Positions 8,156-64,000 of a stretch of DNA of 64,000 nucleotides are shown in pieces. Made by a program: the position numbers and the translations under genes. Source of the DNA: Blasia pusilla (Eukaryota); the NCBI GenBank assembly GCA_050084515.1, contig CM114271.1:24118001-24182000 (forward strand). The letters run 5' to 3'. Every line of letters starts with the position of its first letter. The first letter of the stretch is position 1. The notes below the pieces were generated by a model. The model had not been told where the DNA came from. It was given only the letters and a program-made list of their open reading frames with translations, and made no database searches.

Positions 8156-8159
8156 ATTT

Positions 8160-27400: not shown

Positions 27401-27706
27401 TACCCTGCACCCATGAAGATCCAACTAGTTGGGAATCCGAAATGGCAATCCGACAAGCAACAGGAATCCAACACGTCTTAGAGAAGAAAAGAAGCCTACG
27501 ACTGGTTTGAAAATACTAGGGGATCGAGCCAAAAGTGAAGAAGCCCGCCACAATGCCTCAAAAGTTGGTCTCATAGGGAAAGAGTCCGATCACTCAAGCA
27601 GCCAACCCGTCGGAATCCGACAACTTACGTGGAAATGGTTAAAAAGTTGCAGTGGTGAAAAAGTGAAAAGTTGCAACCCGTCGGAATCAGACGGGTTGCA
27701 AAATAA
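24421..27706. repeat. Tandemly duplicated segment at the probable outer part of the Mutator-like element
   Basis: 24421-24815 matches 26746-27150 (both begin GGGGCTGGTATT); 26190-26743 matches 27155-27706. Confidence 0.8.
25158..26166 (-). mobile_element. Solo LTR of the same chromovirus family
   Basis: TGTCGCG...CGCGACA termini, 5-bp TSD ATAAT (25153-25157, 26167-26171). Confidence 0.95.
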
Positions 27707-27875
27707 ACATTCTGAGTAGCTAGACGAACACAATCGACAAGTCCAAAAAAAATATTCAGTAAACTTTTACAAACATCATTATCGTTTGAAAAAATCTTGT
27801 CCTTTATTACATCCGAAGGAAGCTCGGAAATGTACATTTGATCTAGTCTATGATTTCTTCAGCCTTGTCATCTAC

Positions 27876-35298: not shown

Positions 35299-36279
35299 TG
35301 TCGCGCCCCTACTCTCCTTGAACATCAATCTTTAGTATTGCGGAAGCGTGCGTTCAGTAGGTCGCAAACTCATCGCCGATCTGCACCCAAACACGCACTC
35401 TCGTTAGTTGGGTCTGGCCAACCGGCGTTCCAACCCACCGAGTCCTCAACTCGGCGTCTCATCAAGCTCAACCTTCCTTAGTTCCTAGCTTCCAAAACAT
35501 GGCAAGTCCTTCAAGACTTGGAACAGACTTCCTGGTTAGTCCAGGGATCTGAAACAACACTTGCGCGCCTAGCAATCCCAACTGTTCAAGGGTCCTCGGG
35601 TGAGTTCCGAACCGAGACTCAAGTAATTGAGTCGCGGGGTGGAATCCAAAAGGGATGTCTAAAATCGCCTCACTGGACTTGGTGCAGGTTTTCCAACCCA
35701 ACCCCCAAACTCGCGTTCCGTTCCATGCCCTTGAGCCGCCCCGCGACGCCCAAAGTGGGGTTTGGGTTCCAAGCACTCTCGGAGACCTTCCCTCTTACTA
35801 GTACTTCTGGGGTTCTCCAATAACCCCTCCCCTTTGGGAAAAGAGGTTCGGGCCCTTCATTGTGGCCCTCAACCCGACTCCACTTACAGTCGTTTTCGGG
35901 TTGTATCTCGGCCACTGCTTATGCGTTTGCAGCGATATTTGGTGCGTTTGGACCGGCTTTCCATAAGCTTTCCAACGCATCCTTATTTGCTCCAAATGCA
36001 TCTTGGCGCTAAAAGTTATGGCCATAAATACAGTCGGAAACTCTCAAACGCTAGTGGCGTTCCAAATCCGGATCTTCCCTTTGGCAACCCACTTCCTAGA
36101 CTCGACTTCTTTCAAGTCTCATTCCGCGTTTGGTCCAGGTTTCTCAGTCGCAACCATAACACCTGAAACGCGACTCCTCGTTCGCGTCTCGTCTCTTGTC
36201 TCCACTTTGAGACAACTCCAACGCGCAAACCATGTTCCATGTTCCGCTTGGCACTTGTTTGGTCATGAGGGTCGCGACA
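35299..36279 (-). mobile_element. Chromovirus solo LTR nested between gag and protease of copy 2
   Basis: TGTCGCG...CGCGACA termini, 5-bp TSD GCTCC (35294-35298, 36280-36284). Confidence 0.95.
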
Positions 36280-40718: not shown

Positions 40719-43700
40719 TCGGATTTTACTCGTCGCGGATTGGAGTGGGTACTCGTTCTTGATGACCCACGATTGCGCCGTCCTCCACTTCAACGACCTC
40801 TTGACGCACTGCACGTTGAAGAGCTTGTCCTCGCTCCCTCCAATCAAAACCAAGAAATAGCCCTTGTCATTGAGATAAGCGTCTGCAAAGGAAAACATGA
40901 GCGCGATGTGGTAATAAGAAAGAGGGACATTCCAGTCTGGGACACCGTCGGACGGATTCTCGTCCCACAAGCGCAACTTTGAGGGCAAATCAGCGACGAG
41001 GAGATCCATTGTCACCTACTCGACCTCCCCATGGACCATCCAGGGAGCGTGCCCGTAAGAAAGAGGGACATTCCAGTCTGGGACACCGTCGGACGGATTC
41101 TCGTCCCACAAGCGCAACCTCGAGGGCAAATCAGCGACGAGGAGATCCACCGCCACCTCCTCGACCTCCCCATGGACCATCCAGGGAGCGTGCCCGTTAC
41201 GTTGAAGCTTCTGTCCCAGCGTTGTCAATTTATCGATGGCGGGTGTTGACGCTTGGGAACTGAAACTTTTTAGCTCATCCAGAAGATTCGTGTAGTGAAT
41301 GATGACGCTTGTCCGGGTCGTTGTTTCTCTATGTCTTCCCAAGGATGATGGAGTGTATTCCACATCTTGGTCTGCTCCCTGGGACAAACATGGCGCCTCT
41401 CGCTTCCGCTTCTCCCGAGTCTACGGTCGGCTTGTTGGGGTCTTTATTACCTCAGACTCTAGTGGAGTTTTTTTGGCGGAGGACCTGGTCCGACCCTCTC
41501 TCCCCGCTTGCGCGGATGATTCCGCCTCTTGCCTTGAATTCTCAGCCTCTTTTTGGGAAGACTCGGCCTCAGAATTCTTCAATCCCCTCGCCTTGGCTTG
41601 GAGACCCACTATAGATTTGTCCTTGGCGGTGACGACCTTGCACACCAACTCCGCTGTCTCGAGGGCTTGCTCCTCCGCATCTCCTTCAAAAAAGTCTTCA
41701 AGCTGCACGAAATTGGGGATGTAGTCCCTACTTGCGGCCACTGCATCATAGAGCAGGCGTAGATTTTTCTCGGTTATGTCCTCAGGGTCGTTGAAGTCCA
41801 GCCAGATGGGGCAATTCTCCACCTCCCAGTCGAGAACATGCTTTGAGCCATCTCCATGTCGTACATGGAAAATGTCTCTCCATGAGGCGAAGAAGCCCAC
41901 AATTTGCAGGCTGCCCGTATTTTTTGCCACGTACCTGCATTCTTACAATGGACAATGTACCTGAACACCATGTGTTGGGCAGCTCTTAGTCGAGATGCAT
42001 CGGCCGCCTGCTCCTGAAGATCTCACTTTTTCTTTGCGAAATCCCTTTTCTTCGCCTCTATTTCTTCATCAAGGTCCGCCTGAGGGAGGATGTGATCCTT
42101 GAACATCGTCCTGAAGCCTGGGTTTTTTATGGGCTTGTCATGGATGTCATCCAGCAAAAGTTCAAAATCTTCAGCACTCTCCACGGTTGCTTCCTCCGGA
42201 AGTGGCTCTATTTTTTTCAGCTCCGCTTGGAGATCCACGAGCATGGACTTCTCGAGAAGCCGCAGAGCATCCCAGAATGACCATTCACAGAGCCAGTGGG
42301 AAATCACTGGATCAGAGACACCCGGAGGATGGTGTGCCACCCTCTTTTGGGCCTCTATGCCCTCGAGACTGATTTCCATAAGTCGGATTCTCCTAAATTC
42401 TGAAATTCCACACACGGCAAATTGATGGACGCAGTCGAGAGACACTTTCTCCCCAATCCGACCCTGCGGATCTTCATCCCTCTTCTACTGGGGCTTGATT
42501 ATCGCCTTCAGCTCCTTGTAGAAATCGGGGCCAAGTTCGGGGTTGAGAATGGCGATGTACCGTTGCATCTTGCTTGCAGTGTACTTTGTAGCTGCAGATA
42601 CTGCAGATTGGATGAACTTAGTACGCTCAGACACAGACACTTTCTCCCTCCGCTCCAGCTCCAATGAAGCGCTCTTCTTGGCGGCATGTATCTTCGACCA
42701 GCAAAGGATTGTCATGGCTGCATCTTGGGAAATAAATGTATTTGCCCAAGTCTTGTTTTTTTTATTTGAGCCCCCTTCGCCTGCATCTCATTTACAAGGG
42801 CGTCGCCCAAGAACCCCTTGTACTCTGCAGTGTACTTCGTAGCTACAGATATTGCAGCTTGGATGAACTTAGCACGCTCAGACACAGACACTTTCTCCCT
42901 CCGCTCCAGCTCCAATGAAGCGCTCTTCTTGGCGGCCTGTATCTTCGACCAGCAAAGGATTGTCACGGCTACATCTTGGGAAATAAATTTATTTGCCCAA
43001 GTCTTTTTTTTTATTTGAGCACCCTTTGCTAGCATCTCATTTACAAGGGCGTTGCCCCAAAACCCCTTGTACTCTTCCAGGTGCGTTGTTAGCACTTTAT
43101 TCACCCGATCGCAATCCTGGATCCAGTGGTGGATGACATTCCCCTCGGATACAATCCTGCACATCCAAACTCAATATAAGAAATTTTGCAAGCTACATGG
43201 GTTCCTGCAACTTGTCGAACTTCGACAGGTCGTCACACCTCATGTTCGGAATGGTAACTACGAGCTAAATTTTGCAACCCATCGGAGTTCGACGGATTGC
43301 ATTTAGATTTGTGATTGCCTGGTTTCAACCCATCGGAGTCCGATGGGTTGTCAGATAATATGTATTCAGAGAGTGGTCTCCGTAGGAAAAGTGAACATAT
43401 CAACCCGTCGGAGTCCGACAGGTTGCGCAATTTCAAGTAAAGCTGCAATTTGACGCCAAAAATCAAGCTCCCCTACTTTGATCACCTTCCTGTGCCAGCG
43501 AATGCAACCCGTCGGAGTCCGACGAGTTTCTTTCGGCCAAAAACATCCTAAAAACAACGGCCAGTCGAGCAACTCGTCAAACTCCAACGAGTTGCTTTCG
43601 GCCAAAAACATCCTAAAACAGCGGCCAGCCGAGCAACTCGTCCGACTACGACGAGTTGCTTTCGGCCAAAAACATCCTAAAAACAGCGGCCAGTCAAGCA

Positions 43701-45155
43701 ACTCGTCGGACTACGACGAGTTGCTTTCGGCCAAAAAAATCCTGAAAACAACGACTAGTCAAGCAACTTGTCGGACTCCGACGAGTTGATTTTGGCCAAA
43801 AATATCCTCAAAAATAGCGGTGAGTCAAGCAACTCGTCGGGCTTCGACGAGTTGCTTTAAGGCATACGATGATTTGTTACCACTAGTTAAACAACTCGTA
43901 GGAGTCCGACGGTTTGGAACAATCAAAATAAAGGAAGAGGAAACTTACGTGTTCATGGCATGCATGGCCATCTCCACCGTCGCCATGTGATGAGGGTATG
44001 GATGAAGCATGACTGCCTTCACGCAAAAATGCGCCTCCAATGAGTTTTGGCGCTCCTCTATAAACTGGGTCCACGCCATAAACCTGTGGTTTCCATCCCA
44101 GATGAAGAAATACAGGTTCCGCATCCAGCTGAATTCCGTCCCTTCAATCGCCCTTCTGAATTCCCGATCTCTCATCCTCCACAATGTGTCGAGCGCTTCC
44201 AAGTCCTCCTCTGTCACCAGCGCTTGGGTTCCATGTTCATTGTAAGGCTGAACATAGAACGGAGGGAAGTTGTTGACATAGGATGTTGTTATTGTCGATT
44301 GTTTCAGCTTCGCAATATCCTCGTCAGACTGAATTTTGCGGACGTACTCCATTGTCCACAATCCGCAAAGTGGAATTCTCGGGGCGTTCTGGCCCTCCAT
44401 CAGTGCCATCTGCTTTACCACCTGTCACAATGGAGACAAGGTCAATAAACTACACTGAATCGCCAATGAATTGCAACATGGGCCTTCACATAACTCAAAG
44501 AACAAAGATCATATCTTACCCGCTCGAAGATTGGGTCGGTGTCTTGGCCCGCCAATTGCTCTGGGACAGCAGCTGGCAAGTCCGCTGGAAACTCGTCAAT
44601 CTGATAGAGGTCAATTTCTTCCGCCGGGCTAAGAGACGATGAAGACTGCTCTCCTACTTCTTCAGAGATATCCACCATCTCCACGCTGGCAGTCCTCATG
44701 ACCTCATCGTCCGTCACTTGAACTTTGCCCATTTCCTCAACCGTTTTCTTATTGATTGTGTCCCCGGACTTCATCGGAGACATTTCTTGCATCTCAACTC
44801 TTTCGGTTGGACCGGCCGGACTTTCTTCAATGGCAATCGCTTTTTCCCTTTGAGCTTTTTCCAATTCTGCTCTCCTCACCAACGCGTCCAGACGCTGCTT
44901 TGCACACTTCTCCTCGGCGATCCTTTTCTTCAAGGCCTGCGACGCCTCAGCCTCTGCGTTCTATTTTTCAATCGCCTCCTTAACACGTTCTGCAAGAAGC
45001 TCCTGCCTATGCATCTCCGCTTCCATTTCGCGCTCCTCGATCTCTTGCTGCCTTATCTCATTGGCCAAACGAGGCCCTGGAGATGGTGACGTAGGAGTCT
45101 TGGACTTGGGAGTGAAGCTCCTTGCCTTGCTTGCTTGAGTTTTTTTCCTCGTCAT
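40719..45155 (-). pseudogene. Left-arm gene: coiled-coil N-terminus, ParB-like motif, N-terminal half of an amino-methyltransferase-like domain; exons about 45155-44520, 44421-43949, 43156-40719
   Basis: GT-AG introns at the same positions as in the right-arm copy; FFIWDGNHRFMAW; VDLLVADLPS..AYLNDKGYFLVL..SWVIK; frameshifts and internal duplications. Confidence 0.75.
43525..43900. repeat. Intronic minisatellite of ~61-bp units, each with a GCAACTCGTCGGANTCCGACGAGTTGC-type palindrome
   Basis: About six units of cggccaaaaacatcctaaaa..gcaactcgtc..gacgagttgcttt; inverted counterpart at 52670-52775 and 61788-61890. Confidence 0.85.
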
Positions 45156-45357
45156 TGTTCCCGAAAATACCACCTCCTCGACAACGAAATTACTTTATGT
45201 GCATGATGAGTCACCTCGATGAGTCACCTTGATGAGTCGCTCGAATCGTCTCATGATGAGTCACTGTGTAAAGCGCCCCTTGGTATCTGGTCCGCTACTG
45301 CCCTAAAGAGCAATCGAGATCGCGAAACGAAAAACCTGAAATGAGCAAACTCTAGCC

Positions 45358-45365
45358 TATTTATA
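45358..45365 (-). promoter_or_regulatory. TATA box of the left-arm gene
   Basis: TATAAATA about 200 bp upstream of the ATG, conserved in the right arm. Confidence 0.6.
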
Positions 45366-45971
45366 CTTTTCGAGCCGTTGGACTGACCGTCGTTCTGACA
45401 GCGACGTGTCGGCCGTTATGGAGGTCTGTACGTGAAAACCACCAACCCGACGGTCTCTGACCGGTTGGAGGCATCCATCCTAGCTGAACTATCCTGGCAA
45501 CCCTTCGGAGTCTGACAGGTTGGGCGCCTCCGCCGTCTTGGGGGAAGAACGCGAGGTACCGGCGCAACCGAGGTGAGGTAAGAAGAGAGGAAGAGAGGAA
45601 GAGAGGAGAGATTAGAGAGGAAACTACCTTCAACCGAAAGAGATACTTTTTTTAAAGAGAGTTTCCGTTGGGTTGAAGAGAGGAAACTTTTTGTGTGAAT
45701 TTTTTTGCACTTTTTTGCTCAGTTATTAAGCAGTCCCACATTTTGTTTTTCCTCTTCCATATTTTGGCAACCAACGTGAGTCTGACGAGTTGCAAATTGC
45801 ACAAAATTTAGAAAACTGAAAAATCAGTGGAATCATAAGTGTGGAACCAATCACTTTTTCCGTCCAAGGTCTGGAAAAAATCTATCATTTGCCCTGGGCA
45901 AAATAGAGTTGAAGCTAAAAGTGAAGGTTCTGGAAAAATGAAAGTATAATCTAAAACCTCATTTTGCATCC

Positions 45972-48900
45972 TCAAATTGGTTTGTTTAAAATACTTTGCA
46001 CTTCTTTGAGGGACACAATTGGTTGGTGGATTCCTACTCCTACCTCCGACTCTCTTAAAACTACAAGCAACACATAGTATATGTGCTTACAAGGGAAATA
46101 CCTTTTGCCACTTGTCTCTCTTTGGACAAAGTCATCACATGAACATGTGGAAAAGCAGCTGATGTGCACCACATACACCCCTATGACACTTGAATTTATA
46201 GTGTTGTTCCTGACCCAATACATCCTTCCTATTCCATTGCCACTGTGGACATCTTTTGTGGCGATGATCTCCATTTTTGCCTCTCAAGCTGATGCAATTC
46301 GCTTTGCTCTCTCCACCGTTGGCCTACACATTCTGTTTCTCTTCATCCCATTTCTAGACTCAAACAGAAATAGTGGATTGAGATCATCCACCTTCTCCAG
46401 GTACATGTTGATGTCAATCTTGGGTTGAATACGAAATGCGAAGGTCTCTGTAATGCGAACATGCTCCAAACTTCCTCCGTCTACGAGTCTAAAACCGGCA
46501 CTTGTAAGATTTTCCACTTCGTCTCGAGTGCAATTCGTACCTGCAGCCATGGGCCAAATCGTGGGGGTATTCCGCCGAGCTCCAACGGCAGCCGGATAAG
46601 ACTTGCGGAAAGCGCAAGATTAATTTGGGCCGAAGAAGTACTTCAATTGATCCCCGGTCCTTGTGAAACGATCAAAGATTTTGAGTCCCCAAAACCCAGG
46701 CAGTGGTCGTCCAGTCCTTGTACAATTCTTATTTAGGAAAGTGCCGCATGTTCTCCTAATGCCATCAAATCCTGCCCTGCAAGTGGGTCCATGTCTTGGG
46801 TTGCTCCGAGATATATGCCACCGTTTCAGGTTGCAATCCACCTCCATGACCGGAATCCCATATTGTTGAACCACTCAGCGACCGGATGTTGCGAACTTCC
46901 AACAACGGAGGGCTTTTGAAATAAAACATTCACTGATTTTGGAGAAGTTACTCCAACGCGGATTTGGGAGCGGTCCGGGGTCCCCGAATACCTGGGCGGC
47001 GTAATTTCTTCATCTAAATCAATCACTAGATTCGTTCCTCGATGCTGCCTCTTCACCTGCCTGAAGTCAAGATACTTATCTGGTCTCCACGAGTCTCGCT
47101 CGGATTGCTCTACCACCATCTGTATGGGACGTCTTGAAACGCGCCCACGAATATCCCCACCACTGTGTACGTCTTGCTCGAGGGGAGTTCCTGCTATGCA
47201 CCGGTTGAAGGCTTCCACATAGATTTTTCATCACAGATCTCTGATGCCTACGACATAGAGCTCGTAGATCAAAGGCCCCCTTCCTTTTGTTATGCCTTTT
47301 GTGAGGAAGATATGGGATGCTGGAGAATGTAGCATTGCTCTTGCCTGGTCTTGTTGGCATGCCTCCACTAGTGAAATTCTTTGGCATGCTTGTGACAACC
47401 TCCAAGAGGAATGAACACTTTGTGCTCCACTAGTGAAATTCTTTGGCATGCTTGTGACAACCTCCAAGAGGAATGAACACTTGTGCTCCACTTGTGTTGG
47501 GGCAGAGGGCATTTCAATGAATGTTCAATCCCTACAACGACGGCAATGTGAGAAGGGAACGAAAATAGCTCAGAAGTCAAAGAAATAAGCTACGTGTCGA
47601 AACCAGACGGGTTGCAAGGCCAAGGCATCGCATGAATGACTCTGCGAGCCGTTGGGTTCCGACGTTTTGCAACACCCAGGAACCACCTACTGCAACCCGT
47701 ACGATTTCGACGGGTTGCAAGAACCTTTGGCCACTCCGGGCTGGAAGATCCAAGTGCAAGTCATCTGAAACCCATCCGGGTCAAACTATTTGCTGGCCTT
47801 GTATACATGCGACTTGCATACTTGTATACGGATTGCACCAAAATTCTTGATGCAACCTGTTGGTTTCCGACTGGTTGCACACTCAGGCAACCCGTCGCAT
47901 CCGACAAGTTGCTTGGTTTCTTCGGTTTGAAATCCCTATAGTTCCCACGCTTCTCAACTTGAGCTGCAACTTTTCAAACAATTCTCAGCGTGAGCTTGAC
48001 AAGACGAAATAGTGAACTCACCTACCACATGAAGTTTCCCCATTGTCTCATACGTACAGTCCACCAACTCAACCAAGAGCAGAACTCTTTGTACTTCCCC
48101 TCAATTGCATGCATCCTCCACCACCCATGAAGTTCTTCTTGGCATTCCATGGCATGTTTCAAGGTTTTGTTGTCCTTGCAGCGTTGGAGTAGAGTGACAT
48201 GCTCTGTCCTCTTATTCTCCTTGATGCAAGATTTGGTGTACAGGGTCACAGATTGTTGCCAATGGAAAGCATCCGACCTTTCCCTCTCCGGTTGAACCTC
48301 TCCACCCCATAACACTTCCCTGATAGCAATCCACCCAGGTTGTGCATTGTTCGCCATGAACCCATAAATTTCCGGAGGTGGCCTTTTGTTTTCCTTCACC
48401 CCCTCCAATAAGAGTTACCACCACATCTTCAAACTGCCAACGTCTTCTGCTTTTACTTCACAGAAAAATATACTTTTGAGTCCCTTCTCCACATGGTCAT
48501 AAACGTGAGCACCCATTATCAACCATCCGTTCAACACTCTGTAGCAAATATCAAAGCTTACCTAGCTCCCGTAAAGATCTTCCCCTTCCCTCATTCGATC
48601 TATAAGATCGAGGCCACTCGACGGACCGGTGGTTGACATTTTGAAGACATAGGCCCTGGATCCTTGGCCTCCCTGGCCCATGAACTACCATCTCTGAATG
48701 AATGGAAATCTAGAGTTGGCCTTGATTGTGGCAATAGCATCCATTTCGGTTGTCTTTCCATCCAGTACCCGCATTTGACGCAACAAATTCCGGAAGCATT
48801 TAGGATCAGCGAGAAATGAGAGATTTTCCCAAAGTTGTTTCTCCTCAACAGCCGTGATCTCGCTCTGTCCAGGGATTCCAAGCAATTGTTACAAATTTGT

Positions 48901-50419: not shown

Positions 50420-51050
50420 GATCTTGTGACCCGTCGGATTGCAATGGGTTGCCTCGGAACTATGCGTTGTCGCATTGTTACCCGAGGGATAGAAAAGCGT
50501 GCAACCTGTTGATAACCAACGGGTTGCCCTGGTACCTTGCCTATTAACTCAAGATAAGCAAAGCGTGCAACCCGTCGGCTTTGGACGGGTTGCACGCTTC
50601 TGCCTCACCTTGTAACGCTATCATAAAGGATGATAGCATTACAAGGTGCAACCCGTTGCTCTCCGACGAGTTGCGCGGATGCCGCGCCTTCTTGCACAAA
50701 GACGGCGGAGGCACGCAACCCATCGGCCTCAGACGGGTTGCGCAATTGCCTCACCTTGTAAAACTTACATTAAGGAAGCAACCCGTCTGTTTCCGATGAG
50801 TTGCGCGAGTGCCGCACCTTCTTGCCCAAAGAGGGCAGAGGCGCGCAACCCTCCAACGGGTTGCGCTGGTACCTTGCGTTCTTGTTCGAAAGACGGCATA
50901 GGCGCGCAACCTATCGGTCTCGACGGTTTGCGCGGGTATCTCGTGTTCTTGTCCTACGACGGCGGAGGCGCGCAACCTGTCGGTCTCTGACGGGTTGCCA
51001 CGAGGACGGATGCCTTGAACCCTCGGGAAGCGTGCAACCCGTCGAAGCCG
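50420..51050. repeat. Array of ~60-bp units with the palindrome GCAACCCGTCGG..CCGACGGGTTGC
   Basis: Roughly ten degenerate copies between the transposase start and the right-arm promoter. Confidence 0.8.
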
Positions 51051-51148
51051 TCGAGTTGGTTTTTTTCACGTCCAGACTTCCATAACGGCCGGCACGTCGC
51101 CGTCGAAAGGACAATGCGACCCAACAGTCAGCCCAACGGCTCGAAAAG

Positions 51149-51156
51149 TATAAATA
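51149..51156 (+). promoter_or_regulatory. TATA box of the right-arm gene
   Basis: TATAAATA mirrored at 45358-45365. Confidence 0.6.
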
Positions 51157-52775
51157 GGCAAAGGTTTGCTCATTTCCGGTTTTTCCTTTCGCGATCTCAA
51201 TTGCTCTTCCGCGCAGCAGCTGACTAGATACCAAGGGGCGCTTTACATAGCAACTCATCGCGAGACTATTCGAGCGACTCATCGCGAGACGATTCGACCA
51301 AACAATCGCGAGACGATTCGAGATACTCATCAAGGCGACTCATCGCGACATCAGCAAGGCGACTCATCAAGGTGATTCCTCGAGCCGATTCATCGTGCAC
51401 AGAGAGAAATTCCTTGGCCATAGGAGGCATTTTTGGGAACAATGACGAGGAAAAAATCTCAAGCAACCAAGGCTTGGAGCTTCACTCCCAAGTCCATGAG
51501 GACTCTTGCGTCACCATCTCCAGGGCCTCGTTCGGCCAATGAGATAAGGCAGCAAGAAATCGAGGAGCGGGAAAGGGAAGCGGAGATGCACAAGCAGGAG
51601 CTTCTTGCAAAACGTGTAAATGAGGGCGCTCAAAAAACGCTCAGCAGAGGCTGAGGCATCGCAAGCCTTGAAGAAAAGGATTGCCGACGAAAAGCGTGAA
51701 AAGAAGCATCTAGACGCGTCGGTGAGGAGAGCAGAAATTGGCAAAAGCTGGGAGGGAAAAAGTGATTGCCATTGAAGAAAGCCCTGCCCCTCCAACCAAA
51801 AGAGTTGAGATACAGGAAATGTCCCCGATGAAGTGCGAGGACACAATCAATATAACGGAAACGACATAAGTTCAAGTGACGGACAATGAGGTCATGAGGA
51901 CCGCCAGCGTGGTGATGGTGGACATCGCTGAAGAAGCAGGAGAGCGGTCATCCTCATCTCTAAACCCAGCGGAAGAAATTGACCTCTATCAGATCGACAA
52001 GTTTCTAGTGGACTTGCCAGCTGCTGTCCTAGAGTAATTGGTTGGCCAAGACACCAACCCAACTTCGAGCGGGTAAGAGAGGATATGTGTTCTTTGAGTT
52101 ATGTGAAGGCCCATGCTGCAATTCAATGGAAATTCAGTGTAGCTTATTGACCTTGTCCCTGTTGTGACAGGTGGTAAAGCAGATGGCAATGATTGAGGGC
52201 CAGAACGCCCCGAGAATTCCACTTTGCCGATTGCAAACAATGGAGTAAACGTCAGCGAAATTCAGTCTGACGAGGATATTGCGAAGCTGAAACAATCGGT
52301 TATGACAGCATCCTACGTCGACACCTTCCCTCCGTTCTATGTTCAGCCTTACGATGAACATGGAACCCAAGCGTTGGCTACGGAGGACTTGGAAGCGCTC
52401 GACACATTCTGGAGGATGAGAGATCAGGAATTCAGAAGGGCGATAGAGGGGACGGAATTCAGCTCGATGCGGAACCTATATTTCTTCATCTAGGATGGAA
52501 ACCACAGGTTCATGGCATGGACCTAGTTTGCAGAGGGGCGCCCAAACTCATTGGAGGCATATTTTTGCGTGAAGGCAATCGTGCTACATCCATACCCTCA
52601 TCACATGGCGACGGTGGAGATGGCCATGCATGCCATGAACACGTAAGTTTCCTCTTGCTGCAAACCGTCGGACTCCGACAAGTTGTTTGAGTCGCCACTA
52701 TTTTTGGGATGTTTTTGGTCGAAAGCAACTCGTCGGACTGACGAGTTGTTCGACAAATCACTGGTTTAGGATGTT

Positions 52776-53359
52776 TGTCATGCGAATCCCCATCGTCATA
52801 CAACATACATCGCTGACATACCATACTCACATACATACATAACATAGACGAGAGTATCCACAAACGCAAGTGTACCACAACTAAAATCCGTGAAAGACCT
52901 ACTGTCATAAAACACGTTTACAATCACATACAATTGAGCCAAACCCACTCCACGATGGGAGAATCTAGGTCGAAGCTTGGAAACACCATAGCCAAGAGCT
53001 CTACTCACTACCAAGGCTAACTCCCCAAGCATAGCAGGCTCAACTCAAAGAACTGATGTTCTTTGAGGGCAAGCCACCTTATATCCTCCAACCTAAGAGC
53101 GGGCCCCTCTTTGGGAAAGTCACCCCCAAGTGAGTAACCCCAACCCTATGTATGGAACAAAGACATCTCTACCAAGCCACTACGGTCCTACATAAGGAAT
53201 GGCCTCTACCTGACACTATACTCTACGACATAATCCGTATGGTCATGGAATTTTTCGTGCGAATCCCCATCGTCATACAACATACATATTTGACATACCA
53301 TACTCACATACATACATAACATAGACGAGAGTATCCACAAACGCAAGTGTACCACAACT
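52776..53359 (-). repeat. 3' repeat block Y-X-Y of copy 3: Y 52776-52882, X about 52884-53250, Y 53253-53359
   Basis: Y copies near-identical; X matches 61423-61787; purine tract AGGGGGCG (sense) at 53360-53367. Confidence 0.93.
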
Positions 53360-56300
53360 CGCCCCCTAAGCGGCGGTTAGGTCCTCTAACTCCAGGTAGC
53401 CTATACATCTACTACATGCTATACACCTTCTTGGGTGCCCGAATCGAAGGCCGGGTGCTAGGTTGCCCCATCGTTAGTCGCACATCGTAATCCATATCAT
53501 GCAAAGATCAAGTCATCTACCTCTCCTAAGTACATCGAGGACAAACCCACCTTCCAGTAGGCACAACATCCAAACGTGGAGTCAAACACATCATGTGCCA
53601 ACCCCTAGAACACCGATCACACACCAACATACGGGTTGCGTTACGGTGAGACCCACACAACATGCACCTCAAGCTAGCACGTATCATGGCTAAGCTTGGG
53701 TCACAAGATACCATCCACATTTGGAAGATGACATGGCGCACAATTACGCACATGGTCCTTCCAAACAACTCCATCACGACCCTCCAACATGAGAACTCGA
53801 AGCCAACACCTCACGCACTCGTAAAATAGTGCGGCTGCCGTCACATCCAACGTTGTCGGGCAATCTGCTGCAAATAGACATAGTCCCCACATGGAACCTA
53901 CGAATCGATGGTCGATAACCTCCACCCGAATGGTTGCATACATAACGTATCCCTGTGTTGAGCAATGGCAAGATTCTCAAAGGCTGTTGGCATAACTCTC
54001 CGAAAGAGCTCCGCCCGGCCGAGAACACACCCTCATCTACATCTCGGGTCATCAAGGTCCACCACCTCACTAGACTCCCAACAATTCTTTGTTGGCAAGT
54101 CCGGATCTCGGCCGTATAATGAAAAATAAGGTGAGAAGGAAGCCAAGGATGCTTGGCGATCGAACCTATACTCCATGGCTAACCATGGCAACTGAATATC
54201 CCAGTCTCCAAGATGCCCCTTCTGTAGGCCATACTTGCGCAATGCCCTCTTTACCGTCTGAACCACACGCTCAGCCAAACCATCCGCCTCTGGATGATCT
54301 CGAGGCGTGGTCCGATGATCAATCAACGCCTTGTCACACAAGACCGAAACTCACCCTGAAACTCAGACTGGTGGTCAAGACTTCATTTGGTGCACCAAAA
54401 TGACTAAGCACTCTATCCGAAACGCATACGCCGTTCCCTCACTTGCCTTGTCCGTAATGCCACCAACTCAATCCACTTGGAGAAGTGCTCCACCATCACC
54501 AACACATATCGATGATGTCGATCAATGGTAACGGTCCCGCAAAGTCCACACTCCAACGGTAACCCAACCCCATAATAGGCAAGGGGTGTAATTGTGGTGT
54601 AGGGGCATTAAATGATGCCCTCACCCGGTCACAAACCATACAACGTGACACCAATCTGCTGCACTGAGTATGCATGCCACGCCACCAATATCGCCAAGCG
54701 CAAATAAGCTATACGTGACGCTTTACCCCAAAATGTCCCAACTCCTCATGGGCATGTCGCTGTGCGCTCTCTTTGAGCCAAATGTGGCACTACTCGTACT
54801 CTACCATCCTCCCACATGCGGAGAATATGTGTTCCCTCAATCGATACCTCTTAGCACGTTGAAGAACACGGTCTCGCTCCTTGGCACTCACTATGCCGGC
54901 ACCCTCTTGGTCCGTAGGAACTCCAACACCAACGCATCATCATGAATATCACGCTGATCGGTACCACCATCTCCAACCTTAGGATCGAAGGATGGCCATC
55001 TACCCCTCGACTAGAGTAAGATATCATGTGGTCCTCCATACTAGAGTCCACCCTAACCAACATAAAAGGCGGATGCATGCCAACTGGCACCATCTCCTCA
55101 TCAACCTCGCCATGCCATCTAGCCCCGATTGTATCCTCTTGGCTAGTACATGGGTTCCTACTCAACCCATCAAAGCATCAAGGTTGGCAACTCAGGTCTA
55201 TGTACCACCTGGAAGTCATACTCTGTAAGATAAGAGCCCACCGTGCAAGCTTCCTGTAAGCTTGTCCGACTCCATCAACCACTTGAGCGGCTGGTGATCA
55301 ATAACAAGGGTAAACGTGTGTGCCAAACAAGTAACACCTAAAGTGTGCCCACCCACACTCTTGCCAAGCACTCTCCCTCATATGAACTATAGCGCGACTC
55401 CATTTGCATTATTCGACCGACTTGCATAGGCCACCACAAACTCCATGTGCTCATCATCATGTTGTGTCAACACCGCTCCAAGTCCCAACCTACTCCAATT
55501 AGTGTGTATCTGAAATGGGCGCCCTCGATAGGTCTCCTCAAGATAGGCGCCGCCACCAACCAGGCCTTAAGCTCCCAAAAGCTCTCTCGATCATCTTCCC
55601 AAAGGTGCCACTCTTGATCTGATTTCAGCAATTGGTTCAAAGGCTTTGCCATAGCACTAAATCCCTTCACATACCTCCGATAGTAGTTCGCCAATCCCAT
55701 GAATGCTCGAACTCTACTCACATCTACCGGACGCGGAATAAGTGCAATAGCCTCCACCTTTGCTTGCTGAACTCCCAAACCACCTGGATAGATCACATGA
55801 CCCAAGTACTCAACATCCTCATGGAAGAACTTACACTTTCCTGGATGCAAACGTAGACCATGAGCTTTCAACCGCTCAAACCCTAAACCCTAAATGCTCC
55901 TCCACCGTGTTACTGAACACCAAGATATCATCAATATAACACTGAACAAAATCCAACCCTGCTAGGATCCTGTCCATCACTCTTTGAAACTCGGCAGGTG
56001 CATTCTTCAACCCAAAGGGTAAGAATTTCCACTAGTACAAACAATCCTTGCCATGAGAGTTGACACCCCAAAATGTTGTCTTGGCTTTGTCACTCTCCCG
56101 AATCGGCAATTGATGGTATCCTGCCCGAAGATCCAAATTACTGAAAATCTTTGCCTGTCCCACCACATCAAAGATCTCCTCAGGTGTAGGCATGGCATAC
56201 CTATCGGCCTTGGTTTGCCGATTGATAGGACGGTAATCTCCACACATCCGCCTATCCATGTAGTTGCCATGCATATCCTTTTAGCGAGCATGACAAGTGG

Positions 56301-56859
56301 GCGATGCATACTCTCCATGCGACAACTCCACTAATCCAGCCTCCAAAAGGTCCAACGTCCTACTCTGAATCAGGTCCCTCTCCATATCACTATATCGGTA
56401 GGGACGACGGAAGATTGGCGTATCACTAGCCAAATCAATCCGTATACCGGGTCCAACCAGAGAACCCAACTCCTTCATGCTAAAGGCAAAACAACTCTTA
56501 TAAGCACGTAGGAACTGTGTCAAGCGTTGTTTCTCACCTCCCGTAAGCTTGGGCCCAAGTAATGGCTCCCAAGTCTCCTCCATTGGCATACTAGAGGGAG
56601 AGGCGATGCCATTGGTGCTACATAACCCCTCACAAGATGATACACCCTTAGCTACACCATCATCTCGAGCAAATAACTCCTCCACCAAAGATGAGCAACC
56701 AACTCCACATGCCCAACCATTACATCCCATTTACTCCAAGGATGCAAAATACTACTCTCCTCGCCCACCGATGCCTCTACCGCCCGGTAGCCATCGAGCT
56801 CATTACAAGGGGTGGAAGACCCTGACATAGTCAAGTCGACGCTCGCCATACCAAGACTC

Positions 56860-57745
56860 AAAATCCAAGTCAAACAATTCAGGTCCATGGCTGACCCAAC
56901 ACATGACGTCGTGAAGCCTCGTAAATAGAAGCAACCATTTGCCACGCCATGAGAGTAAATCCCATCGCACGCTCTCTCTCATCAGCGTTAGGCTCCACCA
57001 ACTGCCCGCACATAAGAATCCCATACAAGCCCCGGACCACCTTCCTCGTAGGCATGTGAAGGGAAAACTCACAAATGTGGGTAGTGCCATCCTAGGTGGC
57101 CCACACGGTTCACCACCGCCATGGGTGACCGATCAATAACCCTCACCACTTGAGAAAGTCGCCCAAGATCAAGATACTATCCTTTGAAGGCGAGGATCAT
57201 TTGCCAGACCGCATCATATGCTCGACGTAGAACCTCCCTAGGCAACAAGTTTGTCCACCACAAGCGTGGGCGATGTGCACGCTGAGCCAACTTGTTGCAT
57301 CCAACAACACCGGTGGTCCAATCCAAGACCGCACCTCATGAACACTCGCCATCATCCGGGTCCAAGTGTCACCCAACAATGGAACATTCTCCAGAATGTA
57401 AGCTAGAGCACGTGCCTGATGAACATGAAGATGTCGTAACACCCGTAACATCTCCCAAAACAATCGAGACCTAGGGTCATGTAATCCCTCACCACGACCA
57501 GCACGTGTATGACCTTGACATGGCCATCCAGCAATCACCAAATCCACAGGACCAACCCTCTCAAGGTCCTGCGCCCCCAACAATGCAATGTGTGATGGTA
57601 AAGCACGTTGGTACCCACGAATAGCTGATGGCGGCAACAACTCAGGATATCTCCGCATCAACTGACCAATATGTCGGGATGAGACTCTCTGGGCCGTCTC
57701 ATCTCGCTCCACATACACGTATCTCCGCACAGGAATACCGGCCTG
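56860..57745 (-). pseudogene. DNMT3-like C5 methyltransferase domain of copy 3 (motif I lost by deletion)
   Basis: YVYVERD, IAGWPCQGHT, RLFWEMLR, ILENV intact; joined abruptly to post-protease sequence at about 57745. Confidence 0.88.
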
Positions 57746-60700
57746 AGAATCCATAGCAGAAACATTACCCTCCAAAAAGTCTCCTGGCCAAGTGACTACT
57801 CCACTAAAACCAGCCACAGATGTTAACACTGTTGGGGAAGACCCTCCTGGTCGAGCCCCAGAAATAAATCTCACAGGAACTTGGCTCATACGTCCATCCC
57901 GGATCGCCAACCTGGTCTATAAAGACGTCTCACCCAAATAATCCATCTGAAAACCCATCGGGTACAATACTGCTCCTCCAACTAGTACATCATACGACTC
58001 GATTGATGTGACTACCGCAGATACTCCCAACCGGGAGCTATCAGTCGCATGATCTGGTCTCAACTGTACAGAAAACTTATCCCGTGTCATGAATTGAGAC
58101 CTATCATTGGCTCCTCCAAGTGATGTTTGAATCTGGAATGGGCAAGGCTCAAGCTCTGACCTCCGAATACCCAAACCAATACATGCCGCCTTTCCCAACA
58201 TCAAAGGCTGGGCACCTGAGTCTAACAAGACTCTATCTGGTCTATACACCTGTCCTGTAGGACTCACCAATCGGAAGATCCCACTCCGGTTGTCCAACAT
58301 ACATACACCAGGTGTAAGCCTCTCACGATCAATGGCTGGCCGGGCTGGTAATGCATCCATCTTCGCCGTTGCTGCCTGCCAAGTAGCACTGGTACTCAAT
58401 GCTACTCCTGACATAGAGGGTCGCTCCACCGCAACATCCTCATCCACCTCAACACGTGTAGCAGTAACACCCCCACGTTCACACAATGTGGCTGCTAGCT
58501 GAAATACAGGAGCTAAGTCAACTCCTAAAGCCATCAGCTCCGTGGCCGAAAACAATGGGGATCCCAACACTGAAGTTGCCATCCGCAATACTGCACTGGA
58601 TGCTGCATCCGTGTCTACTACACGCGATGTAGATGCCTCAGTCCCCACTTTCGGCTCAATAGGCTGCGTAGGAACCATGGATGGAGTCCTAAGCACCTCA
58701 GACAACAAGAATGACTGGGGAAGCCTAGCCTGCCTCCCAGCCTCACCCCTCTGTGGGTCCAACTCCACAGTAGCACCACGTGGCTCTGACGCTCGAGTGG
58801 CTCCTCTCAGAATCGCTTGGTGATGCCTCAACCTTTGTCTTTGCACTCGCCATATAAGAGAGATCATCCCCTCCATAAGAGGTGGAAGCCCTCGCTCCCG
58901 ACCGATCTATCTTTGGATACCGACCATTGTAGCCAACTCTCGCTCCAATCTGCTCAATCTGGCGGCAGTGAGGCTGACTCTGTCGTAGTGGTAGGGGTAG
59001 CCACCGTAGGCTCTCCAACCACTGGTCCACCTCTACCACCCCTACCACCCCTACCACCTCTACCACCTCGGCCTCTTGGAGCTACTCCACCACGGCCACG
59101 GCCTGATCTCAACTCTGGATGAAGATCAAAGCAACGCTCTTGAGGATGACCTAGTCTCCCCAATGATCACACGAGTTGGGGCCGATTGAGGCCCATCCTC
59201 CAAAGTCCGTCTCCCATCCTCTTGGGGACAAAACTTCCTAACATGATCACCTCCACATGTCCAACATGACTGTCCTTGTTGCGGGGCAGCAAATGAAGGC
59301 AATGGTCTCTGCACAAATGTCCCTCTAGGACTTGACTGAGGTCGCGTGTACCCCCCACGACTCCCACTACTACTACCACCACCACTACTACAAGACTGTG
59401 AGGTGGGGCAACAACACGAAGCGTGATTTGTATCCCTGAATGAATGCGGATGTCACCACTCTCTCCTTCACGATGTTAAGCTCAATCTTCTTAGATAGAG
59501 CAAACACATGGGTCAATGTGGGTGAATCATCACTCATAAGAGTAGCATCACGCACGTACCCTACGGCGCAAATCTCTGTCCAAGATCCCATACCAAAATC
59601 GATCGCTGATCCTCAGTCACACCTTGGGTTACTGAAATCAAGCGCCGATACGCGTGTATGCCTCACGAAGACTCTCACCGAGTCTTTCGCTCAAAGTCCA
59701 AGATTCCTCAACTTCTCCGTCTTCACTCCTTGATAGTTCTTCTTCAACCTCTTGAAGAACTCTGCAATGGGCTAAACGATGGTGGGGCACTAGTACCTCC
59801 ACTAGTACCCCCACTAGTACCTCCACTTTGGTACCCCCACTCCGGCTCGTACTGCGTACCACTCGGGCCGGGCTAGGTGGCATAGTAGGAGCACTACTAC
59901 CAATACCACCATGGGTGATAGACACATAGCCTGGAGACCAATATTGTCTCCATGCCTCAATCTCAGCAACATGGTCCTTCCTAAACTCATGGTAATCATC
60001 CATGGGTGGTCCTTCCAAGTCTTTGAAACAACCCCTTCCAAGCCAAGAAGGGTGTAAACAACGTGGCGTTCCGCAACATCTGCATATCACACCACGTATC
60101 AAACTCCTGCATGAAGTCCTCCAACTCAATGGTACCCACTGCACCCGAGTATCGTCGTGGGCCCTTCATGGCCCCATATCCACCATCCATGTCCCAAATC
60201 AATGGAGCTGCAACACTCGATAACAACGTAGAAGACTCGGTGTTTGGAACACCCTTGTCCTCCTCTTCATCAATCGTCGGAAGTGGAAAAGGTAGCCGAT
60301 ACCTAAATCCACTCCATGTGAAACCACCACTGTCCGCACCACGGTTCCCAACCAGACCACCCGACAACTCCGTGATGACCAACGCCGATGCCGCACCACC
60401 ACCAAATTACCCAAGTGACGTCGATGTCGCTCTACTATTGTAGCTCTACTAGCTATGGGTGTAGGCAACCTAACCTCTCATCACCACAAGAAGACTCCCA
60501 CGGTCTACTGGTCATCACTCCAGCCTCACTATCAGTAGCACACAAGAGTAACACTACTATGGAAATCAGCGTCAACCCTAACAATGGGCGCGCAAGCAAG
60601 AAGCACAATGGAGGGGATCCAAACACAGGAAATCCAACGACAACCCTCCAATCGCAAATGGAAATCAAGGTAACAAAATCCACCAAACGTGGTGCCCTCT

Positions 60701-61422
60701 GAATCCACAAAACCCACCACACAATTCTAACGCAATAGCTACTCCGCCGCGGGTCGATGACGTGCTAGTCGAACTCGCAGCACCTGAAAATATCACCTGC
60801 ATGGAGAGGCTACACCGTACTATGCGCTAGAGGTACATCAACCAAAAACCTGAGATGCATAAAGTGCCTAACACCTCTCCGAACAGCACCAAATGAGCTA
60901 CAACAGTCTGTACACTGGCATAGTTAAGAACTCAGCAGTTAAGCGTCCTCCAGGCATAATAGCCCAAAGATGAGTGACCAGTTATGCAAAACTCAAATCC
61001 TAAATCCTGCAAAAATTGCCTCACGCCCAAGCAAGCAAGCTTGCTTGCTTGCTCCTTGCTCCTTGCTCCTTGCTCCTTACTCCGCCTCTCACGCCCACTC
61101 GCCCCGAGCTACCACGAGTTGCCTCGAAGCCTCGCCCCGAGCTTCCGCACTCCAAGCTCTCCACATCATAAAATTGTCGAACACGAGCCAGAATCTTCAA
61201 TGCTTGATAACTTCCAACTCCCTTGACGAAATCCGGCGATCTACAACGCGTTGGAAAGCTTTCAGCAAGGCGCTTCTTTCCCAACCAACCACGCACCTGA
61301 TTCACACCTCCAACATAGGCAACAAGCCGCGAACATCCACGGCTGAGTACAAAATCAGCCCTAACCAGATCCTACTGATCTACAATCGAAGCTACCATCG
61401 ATCTACTCCAGTTCTTTGAGTG

Positions 61423-61787
61423 AAATCCGTGAAAGACCTACTGTCATAAAACACGTTTACAATCACATACAATCGAGCCAAACCCACTCCACGATGGGAG
61501 AATCTAGGTCGAAAGCTTATGGAAACACCATAGCCAAGAGCTCTACTCACTACCAAGGCTAACTCCCAACGCATAAGGCTCAACTCAAAGAATCGATCGT
61601 TCTTTGAGGGCAAGCCACCTTATATCCTCCAACCTAAGAGCGGGCCCCTCTTTGGGAAAGTCACCCCAAGTGAGTAACCCCCAACCCTATGTATGGAACA
61701 GCATCTCTACCAAGCCACTACGGTCCTACATAAGGAATGGCCTCTACCAGCACTATACTCTACGACATAATCCGTATGGTCATGACA
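61423..61787 (-). repeat. 5' terminal repeat X of copy 3
   Basis: About 365 bp matching 52884-53250; no Y adjacent; sense TATAA near 61624. Confidence 0.93.
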
Positions 61788-64000
61788 TGTTTTTGGCCGA
61801 AAGCAACTCTTTGGAGTCCGACGAGTTGTTTGACTGACCATAGGTTTAGGATGTTTTTGGCCGAAAGCAACTCGTCGGAGTCCGACAGGTTGCATTCGGA
61901 GGTAGGGAAGCTTTTTGGCGTCAAATTGCATGTTTAATTGAAATTGCGCAACTTGTCAGACTCCGACGGGTTGATATGTTCACTTTTCTCTCGGTAACCA
62001 CTCTCTAAATACAAATTATCTGACACCGACGGGTTGAAACCAGGCAATCACAAATCTGAATGCAATCCATCGGACTCCGATGGTTGCAAAATTTAGCTCG
62101 TAGCTACCATTCCGACCATCAACTGTGACGACCTATCGGAGTCCGACGGGTTGCAGGAACCCATGAACCTTGCAAAATTTCTTATATTGAGTTTGGATTT
62201 GTAGGATTGTATCGGAGGGGAAAGTCACCCACCACTGGATCCAGGATTATGATCGGGTGAAGAAAGTGCTAACGACGAACCTGGTAGAGTACAAGGGGTT
62301 CTTGGGCGACGCCCTTGTAAATGAGATGCTGGCAAGGGTGCTCAAATAAAAAAAAAGACTTGGGCAAATAAATTTATTTCCCAAGATGTAGCCGTGACAA
62401 TCCTTTGCTGGTCGAAGATACTGGCCGCCAAGAAGAGCGCTGCATTGGAGCTGGAACGGAGGGAGAAAGTGTATGTGTCTGAGCGTGAAAGTTCATCCAA
62501 GCTACGGTATCTGCAACTACAAAGTACACGGCAAGCAAGATGCAGCGCTACATCGCCATTCTCAACCCCGAACTTGGCCCCAATTTCTACAAGGAGCTGA
62601 AGGCAATAATCAAGCGCCAGCGGAAGAGGGATGAAGATCCGCAAGGTCGGATTGGGGAGAAAGTGTCTCTCGGTCGCGTGCATCGATTTGCCTTGTCTGG
62701 AATTAGCGAATTTAGGAGAATCCGACTGATGAAAATTAGTCTCGAGGGCACAGAGGTCCAAAAGAGGGCGGCACACCATCCTCCGGGTGTCTCTGATCCA
62801 GTGATTTCCCACTGGCTCCGTGAATGGTCATTCTGGGAGGCGTTGCGGCTTCTCGGGAAGTCCATGCTCGTGGGTCTCCAAGCGGAGCTGAAAAGAATAG
62901 AGCCAGTTGCGGAGGAAGCAAACCTGGAGAGTGCTGAAGATTTTGAACTTTGGTTGGATGACATGCGGGACAAGCCCATAAAAAACCCAGGTTTCAAGAC
63001 GATGTTCAAGGATCGCATCCTCCCTCAAGCAGAACTTGACGAAGAAATAGAAGCGAAAAAAAAGGGATTTCGTAGAGAAGAAGGGAGATCTTCACGAGCA
63101 GGCGGCCGATGCATCTCGACTAAGAGCTGCCCAACGCATGGTGTTCAGGTACCTCGTCCATTGTAAGAATGGAGGTAACTGGAAAAAAATACCGGCAGCC
63201 TGCCAATTATGGACTTCTCCGCCTGATGGAGAGACATTTTCCATGTACGACATGGAGATGGCTCAAAGCATGTCCGATTGGGAGGTGGAGAATTGCCCGA
63301 TTTGGCTGGACTTCAACGACCCTGAGGACATAACCGAGAAGGATCTATGCCTGCTCCATGATGCAATGGCCGCAGGTAGGGACAACATCCCCAATTTTGT
63401 GCAGCCTGAAGACTTTTTCGAAGGAGATGGGAGGAGCAAGCCCTCGAGACAACGGAGTTGGTGTCCAAGTTCGTCACTGCCTAGGACAAATCTACACCGG
63501 GTCTCAAAGCCAAGGCGAGGAGATCGAAGAATTCCGAGGCCGAGTCTTCCCAAAGAGAGGCTGAAAATTCAAGGTGAGAGCCGAAATCGTCCGGGCGAGC
63601 GGGGAGAGAGGTTCGGACCAGGTCCTCCGCAAAAAAAACTCCACCAGAGTCTGAGGTCATAGAGACCCCAACAAGCCGACCGCAGACTCGGGAGAAGCGG
63701 AAGTGATAGGCGCCAGGGTTGTCCCAGGGAGCAGACCAGGATGTGGAATACACTCCATCATCCTTGGGAAGACATAGAGAAACAACGACCCGGACAAGCG
63801 TCATCATTCACTGCACGAATCTTCTGGATGAGCTGAAAAGTTTCAGTTCCCAAGCGTCGACACCCGCCATTGAGAAATTGACAACGTTGGGACGGAAGCT
63901 TCAACAAAACGGGCACGCTCCCTGGACGGTCCATGGGGATGTCGAAGAGGTGGCAGTGGATCTCCTCGTCGCTGATTTGCCCTCCGGGTTGCACTTATGG

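Follow-up and report, generated by a model that had tools for sequence, protein, structure and literature searches.

A split-repeat Ty3/Gypsy element in the bryophyte Blasia pusilla and a proposed route of integration through an attachment site inside its repeat

In textbook long terminal repeat (LTR) elements, the ends on which integrase acts are set by two priming sites. The Tf1/Sushi and Tcn1 chromoviruses have such ordinary LTRs, and the primer of Tf1 is 11 nt long. Self-priming is known in both of these groups (Neumann et al. 2019, PMC6317226), and the integrase of HIV-1 can cleave the palindromic two-LTR junction internally (PMC1905944, PMC4372172). The closest described element is KnitGypsy-Dnmt3 of Klebsormidium nitens, to which a figure legend (Fig. 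4c) ascribes a DIRS repeat structure with Gypsy domains (de Mendoza et al. 2018, PMC5890265). In the text of that article that we covered, which excludes the figures, neither a duplication length nor termini, a primer site or a mechanism is stated for this element; a text search of three of its supplement files for "KnitGypsy" and "target site" gave no match (the bioRxiv supplements were not covered), and the name appears in no other paper in the literature we searched. A 2026 preprint, in the part available, mentions a streptophyte "Gypsy-DNMT3" in passing only (10.64898/2026.05.21.726589). We found no mechanism for a split-repeat Gypsy layout in the literature searched, with subscription papers and Repbase outside the search. 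Here we analyze an element of this layout in a stretch of 64,000 nucleotides from Blasia pusilla (assembly GCA_050084515.1, contig CM114271.1, positions 24,118,001 to 24,182,000), which we call the window. The element, at 52776..61787 on the minus strand, is a decayed Ty3/Gypsy element with many stop codons and frameshifts, and is arranged as X1-internal-Y1-j-X2-Y2, where X and Y are the two parts of a split repeat and j is the internal junction between Y1 and X2. We consider it likely that in this element the attachment site has become uncoupled from the priming sites, with priming of the Tf1 type, integration through j, and joining of the two ends of the complementary DNA (cDNA). The layout is already in print; the mechanism that we suggest for it did not turn up in the literature searched and would follow from footprints left in the genome.

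All features of the element lie on the minus strand and are described in its own direction. X1 (61422..61787) begins with a TG attachment half-site and contains the putative promoter and an R-like region. It is separated by an internal region of about 8 kb from a polypurine tract (53360..53367), which adjoins Y1 (53253..53359) on its 5' side. Y1 ends in a CA attachment half-site, degenerate in this copy, and is followed by the two-base spacer (53251..53252) of the internal attachment site j. This site has the form CA-nn-TG, with GC the commonest spacer in the family, and in this copy the junction reads CACGAAA-AA-TTCCATG. X2 (52883..53250) is followed by Y2 (52776..52882), which forms the right terminus; the X2|Y2 joint at 52883/52882 is a candidate for the joint of two cDNA ends. 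By self-BLAST the two X copies are 94% identical and the two Y copies 95%. The termini are TGTCATG and CATGACA, and AACA (TGTT on the plus strand) flanks the element on both sides as a 4-bp target duplication, with its 5' copy at 61788..61791 and its 3' copy at 52772..52775. Removal of the element and one copy of the duplication restores a 65-bp unit, as seen at 61846-61862 and in a paralogous arm near 43600. An earlier sequence-only reading of the window had proposed the split repeats, the polypurine tract, the termini, the duplication and the restored empty site, and all of these were borne out by the sequence and by self-BLAST. Y2 has no target duplication of its own, which speaks against the idea that the terminal Y is an independent insertion. 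About 480 nt of 5' leader, present in most copies of the family, are missing here at about window position 61140.

Genome-wide searches covered the 390 Mb assembly. We refer to the family of the studied element as family A, and to a sister family as family B. The latter includes a second element of the window, copy 2 (40444-29154), which has the same layout and a longer X. X measures 366 nt in family A and about 518 nt in family B, Y measures about 107 nt and about 127 nt, respectively, and the X repeats of the two families gave no BLAST match to each other. The sequence-only reading had described these as two sequence-distinct families of one layout. The shared layout holds, and the internal regions are 72% identical (and part of Y is 77-78% identical); the families are, on this evidence, related and not independent. 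Two further sequences belong beside them. Copy 1 (window 1-8158) is clipped by the window's edge, is approximately 80% identical to copy 2 and has copy 2's primer-site sequence after X. A diverged X-Y unit at locus L184:485-1050, which is 72-75% identical to family B and has no Y before it, is perhaps the solo unit of a third family.

The split layout recurs throughout both families. With a query confined to the internal region, 27 of 30 fetched family A loci continued into Y-X-Y (Y2 was interrupted in two of them); one of the other three ends after Y1, one is cut inside Y1, and one has other DNA replacing X2. Among 30 family A loci found by their 5' end, 29 have an intact X start and none has Y directly upstream. 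The 5' end was sought in 54 family A copies, of which 43 were two-ended, while in nine the end lay outside the fetched stretch and two were truncated. An exact 4-bp duplication flanks 34 of the 43, and four more show one mismatch. None has a 5-bp duplication, so that the 4-bp duplication stands and the alternative 5-bp reading, ATGTT, does not. In family B, 16 of 30 loci have Y-X-Y, three have a truncated X and 11 end at Y1. Stretches on the 5' side were fetched for 20 of these 30 loci and contained the end in 12, none of which has Y upstream; the duplication is exact in five of six monomers (X-internal-Y) and in four of six full copies, with one mismatch in the other two full copies. Monomers are thus found in 11/30 loci of family B and 1/30 of family A, despite similar Y lengths. 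The sequence-only reading had named copies without the terminal Y as grounds for refutation, and the outcome is mixed: copies without the terminal X-Y do exist, but they are monomers with their own 4-bp duplication, and the model favored here accommodates them. In total, the genome holds at least about 800 X|Y joints of family A and at least about 1,100 of family B. These family-wide counts support the suggestion, made from the window alone, that the layout does not stem from a chance rearrangement but reflects a lineage-wide mechanism.

The 12 nt directly after X1 (61410..61421) do not start with TGG. Read as their reverse complement, they match a stretch of X that lies approximately 30 nt past a TATAA box. 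This complementarity is exact in 29 of 41 family A copies and has at most one mismatch in 38 of the 41, and in a shuffle control an exact match occurred in 1 of 20,000. It is also exact in 6/6 family B copies, with a different sequence, and the complementary site lies 173 nt from the primer site in family A and 174 nt from it in family B, despite the unequal lengths of X. In the studied element, the TATAA box of the putative promoter (61620..61624) is spaced 30 nt from the complementary site, which would form the first 12 nt of the transcript (61583..61594) and pairs with the primer site at 10 of 12 positions; the counterpart in X2 (53054-53043) pairs at 12 of 12. Complementarity to a site at this distance from a TATAA box is a signature of self-priming, and the primer site is therefore likely to be of the self-priming type. 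The primer duplex dominates the predicted fold in family A, with pair probabilities of 0.68-1.0. An inverted repeat spans the predicted start site in both X copies (61610-61583 and 53070-53043); its 3' copy would fold back and cover the beginning of R, and family B has a looser counterpart.

The polypurine tract adjoins Y1 in both families, and among the family A and B copies examined there is no primer site after any Y and no purine tract before any X. Given a primer site after X1 and a purine tract before Y1, the repeat that reverse transcription is predicted to build starts with Y, includes j and stops where X ends. Variation among copies was studied in 39 family A copies (the 41 above minus two with a disrupted Y2). 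A variant was common to both X copies of one element in 14 of 14-15 cases at X34, 8 of 8-10 at X87 and 3 of 3-4 at X361, and to both Y copies in 16 of 16 cases at Y56 and 9 of 9-10 at Y93. Doubleton states were confined to one copy in 11/56 cases. Both repeats are homogenised within copies, as expected of reverse transcription.

The joint between X and Y carries a second kind of evidence. Exact genome-wide patterns found 708 precise X|Y joints in family A and 71 with inserts of 1-30 nt. By hand tally, the single-base inserts are A in 33 joints, G in 17, T in nine and C in none. A is the first base of the primer site and G the last base of the purine tract, while a single T could be the complement of an untemplated A. 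Among the longer inserts, also tallied by hand, four clearly start as the primer site, four end as the purine tract and four are other or ambiguous. The corresponding pattern for family B gave 1,105 matches. Among the 100 of these that were listed, a hand tally counted 66 exact joints, 21 that add A, seven that add 2-24 nt of primer site and leader, three that add AG, G or T, and three with substitutions. One family A copy, which has a 4-bp duplication, carries 161 nt of primer site and leader at this joint, and related aberrant right ends occur at loci L195, L196 and L152. At L196:1877-2263 the right end is made up of 96 nt of leader and an inverted X, which would place an X start at each terminus; the 5' end at L196 was sought and not found. 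The inserts at X|Y precede the exact Y start. Remnants of a primer site and purine tract at a joint resemble those of retroviral two-LTR junctions. Such remnants are found in a minority of X|Y sites, as would be expected of a joint of cDNA ends.

If the element were inserted from a closed circle whose junctions were freely accessible, two permutations would be expected at approximately 1:1. In family A, exact genome-wide patterns matched j-X-Y 344 times and j-X-primer site four times, and reversed controls gave no match. Three of the four are normal-orientation copies with aberrant right ends. The fourth is a true opposite permutation, X-Y-j-X-internal-Y, with a 4-bp duplication and with repeats 96.7% and 95.3% alike. 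The opposite permutation that the sequence-only reading had proposed to look for thus exists, but as one copy against 344 normal matches. With this ratio, a freely symmetric closed circle is rejected for family A; of the circle model put forward in that reading, the circle-type junction is retained and the simple closed two-LTR circle is not. Integrase probably opens the 5' j.

Family A RNA is present in a raw run with the same species label as the assembly. Sense RNA covers the internal region, Y1, j and X2 at a depth of about 70-150 and falls to 15 and then 3 in the bins at X2|Y2, with no comparable drop at the other edge of the stretch. At j there are 115 RNA reads, and 27 continue from X into the primer site. 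The junctions j, X|primer site and X|Y are crossed by short-read contigs and by RNA reads. Contigs from two further organisms (B and C) match j and the X|primer-site junction at high identity, and span X|Y too weakly to count; these organisms may be close relatives, or their labels may be wrong. Relatives with flanking DNA were also sought in metagenomes, which gave 91 pattern matches, none of them confirmed.

The degenerate internal junction of the studied copy had been explained in the sequence-only reading by repair of a nicked site. In 100 listed j-X-Y rows, found with a pattern that requires intact half-sites, a hand tally of the spacer gave GC 44, GT 21, AC 20, AT five, other two-base forms four and three-base forms six. 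CA-GC-TG reads CAGCTG, in which each spacer base is, on one of the two strands, a cytosine in CTG context. G>A and C>T predominate among the spacer changes, whose frequency in the same rows is about 25% per base (hand tally), and the change rate at other CTG-context sites of the element has a mean of 0.17 and reaches 0.43-0.47 at the top. The degenerate junction falls inside this background of CTG-context mutation and miscalls, and nick repair is not needed to explain it. Departures from the majority base number 113 in X2 and 52 in X1 at X positions 0-119, and 60 in X1 and 18 in X2 at positions 280-359. Errors therefore rise with distance from the unique flank in X1 and X2 alike, which points to unpolished long-read errors, and we infer that the junction changes are such errors on top of methylation-driven transitions. 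Short reads confirm the GC and GT spacers. The AC and three-base forms are not among the short-read rows shown (119 substitution rows being unshown), and there is no indel at j among the 12 short-read indel rows shown, of 28. On a tree of the 39 copies, AC, GT and ATT spacers are unclustered, and GC is mildly clustered (6/500 shuffles). Inner half-sites are altered more often than the element's termini.

The layout, target duplication, positions of the priming signals, repeat homogenisation, junction remnants and permutation bias are directly seen in the genome, and we propose the following route to them. The RNA would start about 30 nt past the TATA box in X1, run through the internal region, Y1 and j, and end in X2. 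Minus-strand synthesis would be primed by the first 12-13 nt of this RNA, in the manner of Tf1, at the site that directly follows X1, and plus-strand synthesis by the polypurine tract, beginning with Y1. With these primers, ordinary reverse transcription would yield a linear [Y-j-X]-internal-[Y-j-X] molecule whose ends are not attachment sites. DDE integrase would cut the near-palindromic j (CA-nn-TG) of the 5' repeat after CA on each strand. This would produce two ends like processed retroviral ends, which would be inserted with a 4-bp duplication. The original cDNA ends, namely the end of X and the start of Y, would be joined either before or after insertion, resulting in X-internal-Y-j-X-Y. 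The 5' j is probably preferred because it would become double-stranded first, after about 470 nt of minus-strand extension, whereas the 3' repeat would have to await plus-strand synthesis across about 9 kb. The X-internal-Y monomers could arise from a one-repeat circle, from a double cut, or from later Y-by-Y recombination.

Several points weigh against this reconstruction. All of the evidence is genomic footprint, and extrachromosomal cDNA was not seen. In the family B fold, the pair probability of the primer duplex is only about 0.25. The single-base inserts at X|Y are possibly in part long-read errors, and the longer inserts possibly reflect later gene conversion from X1. The RNA run has no pile of read starts at the predicted start, and its sole pile lies approximately 30 nt upstream. 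A circle that recombined with a solo X-Y could have produced the lone opposite permutation, the ratio of 344:1 is for one family and comes from exact patterns that overlook mutated copies, and our explanation of this bias is conjecture. Moreover, four RNA reads cross X2|Y2 into Y, so this joint is sometimes transcribed. Those reads are also what a templated route like that of DIRS or Ngaro elements would lead one to expect, in which the RNA extends into Y2, the internal junctions act as template or splint to rebuild the ends, X|Y is inherited, and integrase acts on a linear X-internal-Y-j-X-Y molecule. Such a route would explain the one-sided permutation without added assumptions and the exactness of 91% of X|Y joints (708/779), and the A-coding-B-A-B layout is typical of DIRS-type elements according to the text of PMC5890265. 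However, it does not fit with X|Y inserts that consist of primer-site and purine-tract remnants followed by the exact Y start, with the collapse of RNA depth before Y2 and the 27 reads from X into the primer site, or with both priming signals bordering Y-j-X instead of the element's termini. We regard it as unlikely.

Still less probable, in our view, is integration from a simple closed two-LTR circle that can be cut open at one j or the other, with the unused j often nicked and repaired to give the degenerate junction. The circle-like appearance of X|Y, the one opposite permutation, spacer variants that (GC excepted) do not cluster on the tree, and the more frequent change of inner half-sites would all agree with it. 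Against the circle stands the permutation count; against nick repair stand spacer changes inside the range of CTG-context sites, departures that rise away from the unique flank, and the short reads, which have GC or GT at j and no j indel in the 12 rows shown. It could also be supposed that an ordinary X-Y LTR element lost its 5' Y to a new position once, in an ancestor, and that the resulting layout was passively copied. X2-Y2 alone does resemble a TG...CA LTR, yet such an ancestor should have left a primer site after Y and a purine tract before X, and it sits poorly with the homogenisation of both repeats and with a layout found in two families with unrelated X and, going by the published legend, in Klebsormidium; we consider this very improbable. 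Finally, residual errors within the repeats of the assembly might raise the suspicion of an assembly artefact, or of independent insertions nested in each other. We give this almost no credence, since a single 4-bp duplication brackets the whole unit in 34/43 copies and since short-read contigs and RNA reads span the three junctions.

The coding region, on the minus strand and in pieces, is that of a Gypsy element with additional domains. It comprises a broken Gag-like region (59100..60190; tblastn with Marchantia proteins, and a weak Pfam Gag match in a sister copy), an open piece containing a protease-like LDSG motif (57917..58906), a C5 cytosine methyltransferase domain with GWPCQG and ENV motifs (56860..57745; PF00145, E 1.3e-08), reverse transcriptase (RT) and RNase H (55219..56571), a DDE integrase with H2C2 finger and core (54036..54708; weak Pfam matches here, and tblastn), and a PHD finger that ends the coding region (53529..53670; PF00628, E 4.4e-11). 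Pieces of this copy match the Pfam families C5 DNA methylase, RVT_1, RT_RNaseH and PHD, and H2C2 and rve weakly. The uninterrupted frames of the sister copy match H2C2 (6.7e-16), rve (2.2e-13), methylase, RT, RNase H and, weakly, Gag. The order protease-RT-RNase H-DDE integrase is as in Ty3/Gypsy, and the best match among solved structures is Ty3 Gag-Pol (E 1.1e-95). Among the pieces and frames scanned, no tyrosine recombinase family was matched, rve and H2C2 being present instead; no chromodomain match follows the integrase in the scanned proteins, and the PHD finger stands in that place. In the sister copy, a Gag-protease-methylase frame and an RT-RNase H-integrase frame are in phase with one stop codon between them, which is possibly a programmed readthrough; the Marchantia protein P0004 likewise stops before RT.

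Among named proteins, those of Marchantia polymorpha, Calypogeia, Riccia and Sphagnum come closest, followed by those of Klebsormidium, Closterium, Tetraselmis and Tetrabaena, an order that points to a bryophyte host, and the RT-RNase H region is 85% identical to that of Calypogeia and Marchantia relatives. In a quick RT tree of 24 rows, 23 of them taken from top protein matches and with no chromovirus or Tat references, all green-lineage rows stand apart from two animal Gypsy rows (99 by the SH-like approximate likelihood ratio test), and the inner forks are weak.

The surroundings of the element were also inspected. The "host minisatellite" of the sequence-only reading lies in a long inverted arm of a probable Mutator-like element. 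Inverted arms of approximately 4.5 kb, 85-91% alike, are found at window 41106-45567 and 50670-64000, and the core between them carries a SWIM finger (45972-46283); together these probably make up a Mutator-like element whose terminal inverted repeats are very long. Its right arm holds the studied element, in the 65-bp minisatellite. Elsewhere in the window, a 1-kb repeat occurs in three copies (21544-22543, 25158-26166 and 35299-36279). Two copies flank a Tf2-type SH3 piece (23454-24158) and are probably the LTRs of another Gypsy element, and the third, inside copy 2, is probably a solo LTR. There is also a piece of a Slu7 splicing-factor gene (15439-16035; PF11708), and 24442-28577 is a tangle of direct and inverted repeats of 240-580 bp.

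Uncoupling of the priming sites from the attachment site would oblige integrase to work within the cDNA and would require the cDNA ends to be joined. We incline slightly towards the broader view that a green-lineage Gypsy clade, with relatives in liverworts, Sphagnum, Klebsormidium, Closterium and chlorophytes, has as its normal way of integrating a cut at an attachment site within the LTR and the joining of the cDNA ends. If true, this would be a DDE-integrase retroelement for which junction cleavage, and not processing of linear ends, is the standard route, and a natural case of what has to date been regarded as a sideline of retroviral integrases. Recombinase-type elements, with their split direct repeats, may have arrived at the same geometry with another enzyme. 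The model also offers a way to explain, in testable terms, the layout for which the 2018 report gave no mechanism. The element itself widens the range of methyltransferase-carrying Gypsy elements to include land plants. We speculate that the encoded methyltransferase might shield the spare j from being cut again. A practical point is that LTR finders built around two full terminal repeats would probably overlook such elements or cut them wrongly, including those in Marchantia relatives.

Compared with known systems, the element has the TG...CA termini and a duplication within the 4-6 bp of Ty3/Gypsy elements, but the two complete terminal repeats bounded by primer site and purine tract that characterize this group are split here. 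Troyka elements, as far as the portion of the source available describes them, share a Gypsy-like domain order and have ordinary LTRs, CG...CG ends, a 3-bp duplication and an occurrence in animals only (Kojima 2025, PMC12440569); we rejected assignment to this family, since the element has neither CG...CG termini nor a 3-bp duplication. With PAT, Ngaro and DIRS elements it has in common the split direct repeats (A-coding-B-A-B) and insertion through an internal repeat junction, but it differs in its DDE integrase, TG...CA ends and 4-bp duplication, and no tyrosine recombinase was found in the scanned pieces and frames; we do not regard it as a DIRS or Ngaro element. The presumed cut at a palindromic CA..TG inside duplex DNA is like the retroviral cleavage of two-LTR junctions, as described in the parts of those reports available. 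In retroviruses, however, this is a side route and the junction cut is itself the joint of cDNA ends, whereas here it would be a separate, transcribed site used in what seems to be the normal route. As in Tf1/Sushi and Tcn1, so far as the available text describes these, the domain order is that of Gypsy and the primer site pairs with the predicted 5' end of the transcript, not with the 3' end of a tRNA; unlike these chromodomain-bearing elements, the Blasia element combines a methyltransferase with a PHD finger and has its presumed attachment site inside the repeat. Over 95% of the RT-RNase H-integrase region it is 46% identical to P0072, a K. nitens protein that has methyltransferase, RT, RNase H and integrase domains and may or may not belong to KnitGypsy-Dnmt3. 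The Blasia element differs from KnitGypsy-Dnmt3 in its occurrence in a bryophyte and in its C-terminal PHD finger. With Gypsy domains, a C5 methyltransferase in the polyprotein (PF00145) and A-coding-B-A-B repeats in both, to the extent that the published text describes the K. nitens element, the element studied here is most likely of the same kind as KnitGypsy-Dnmt3.

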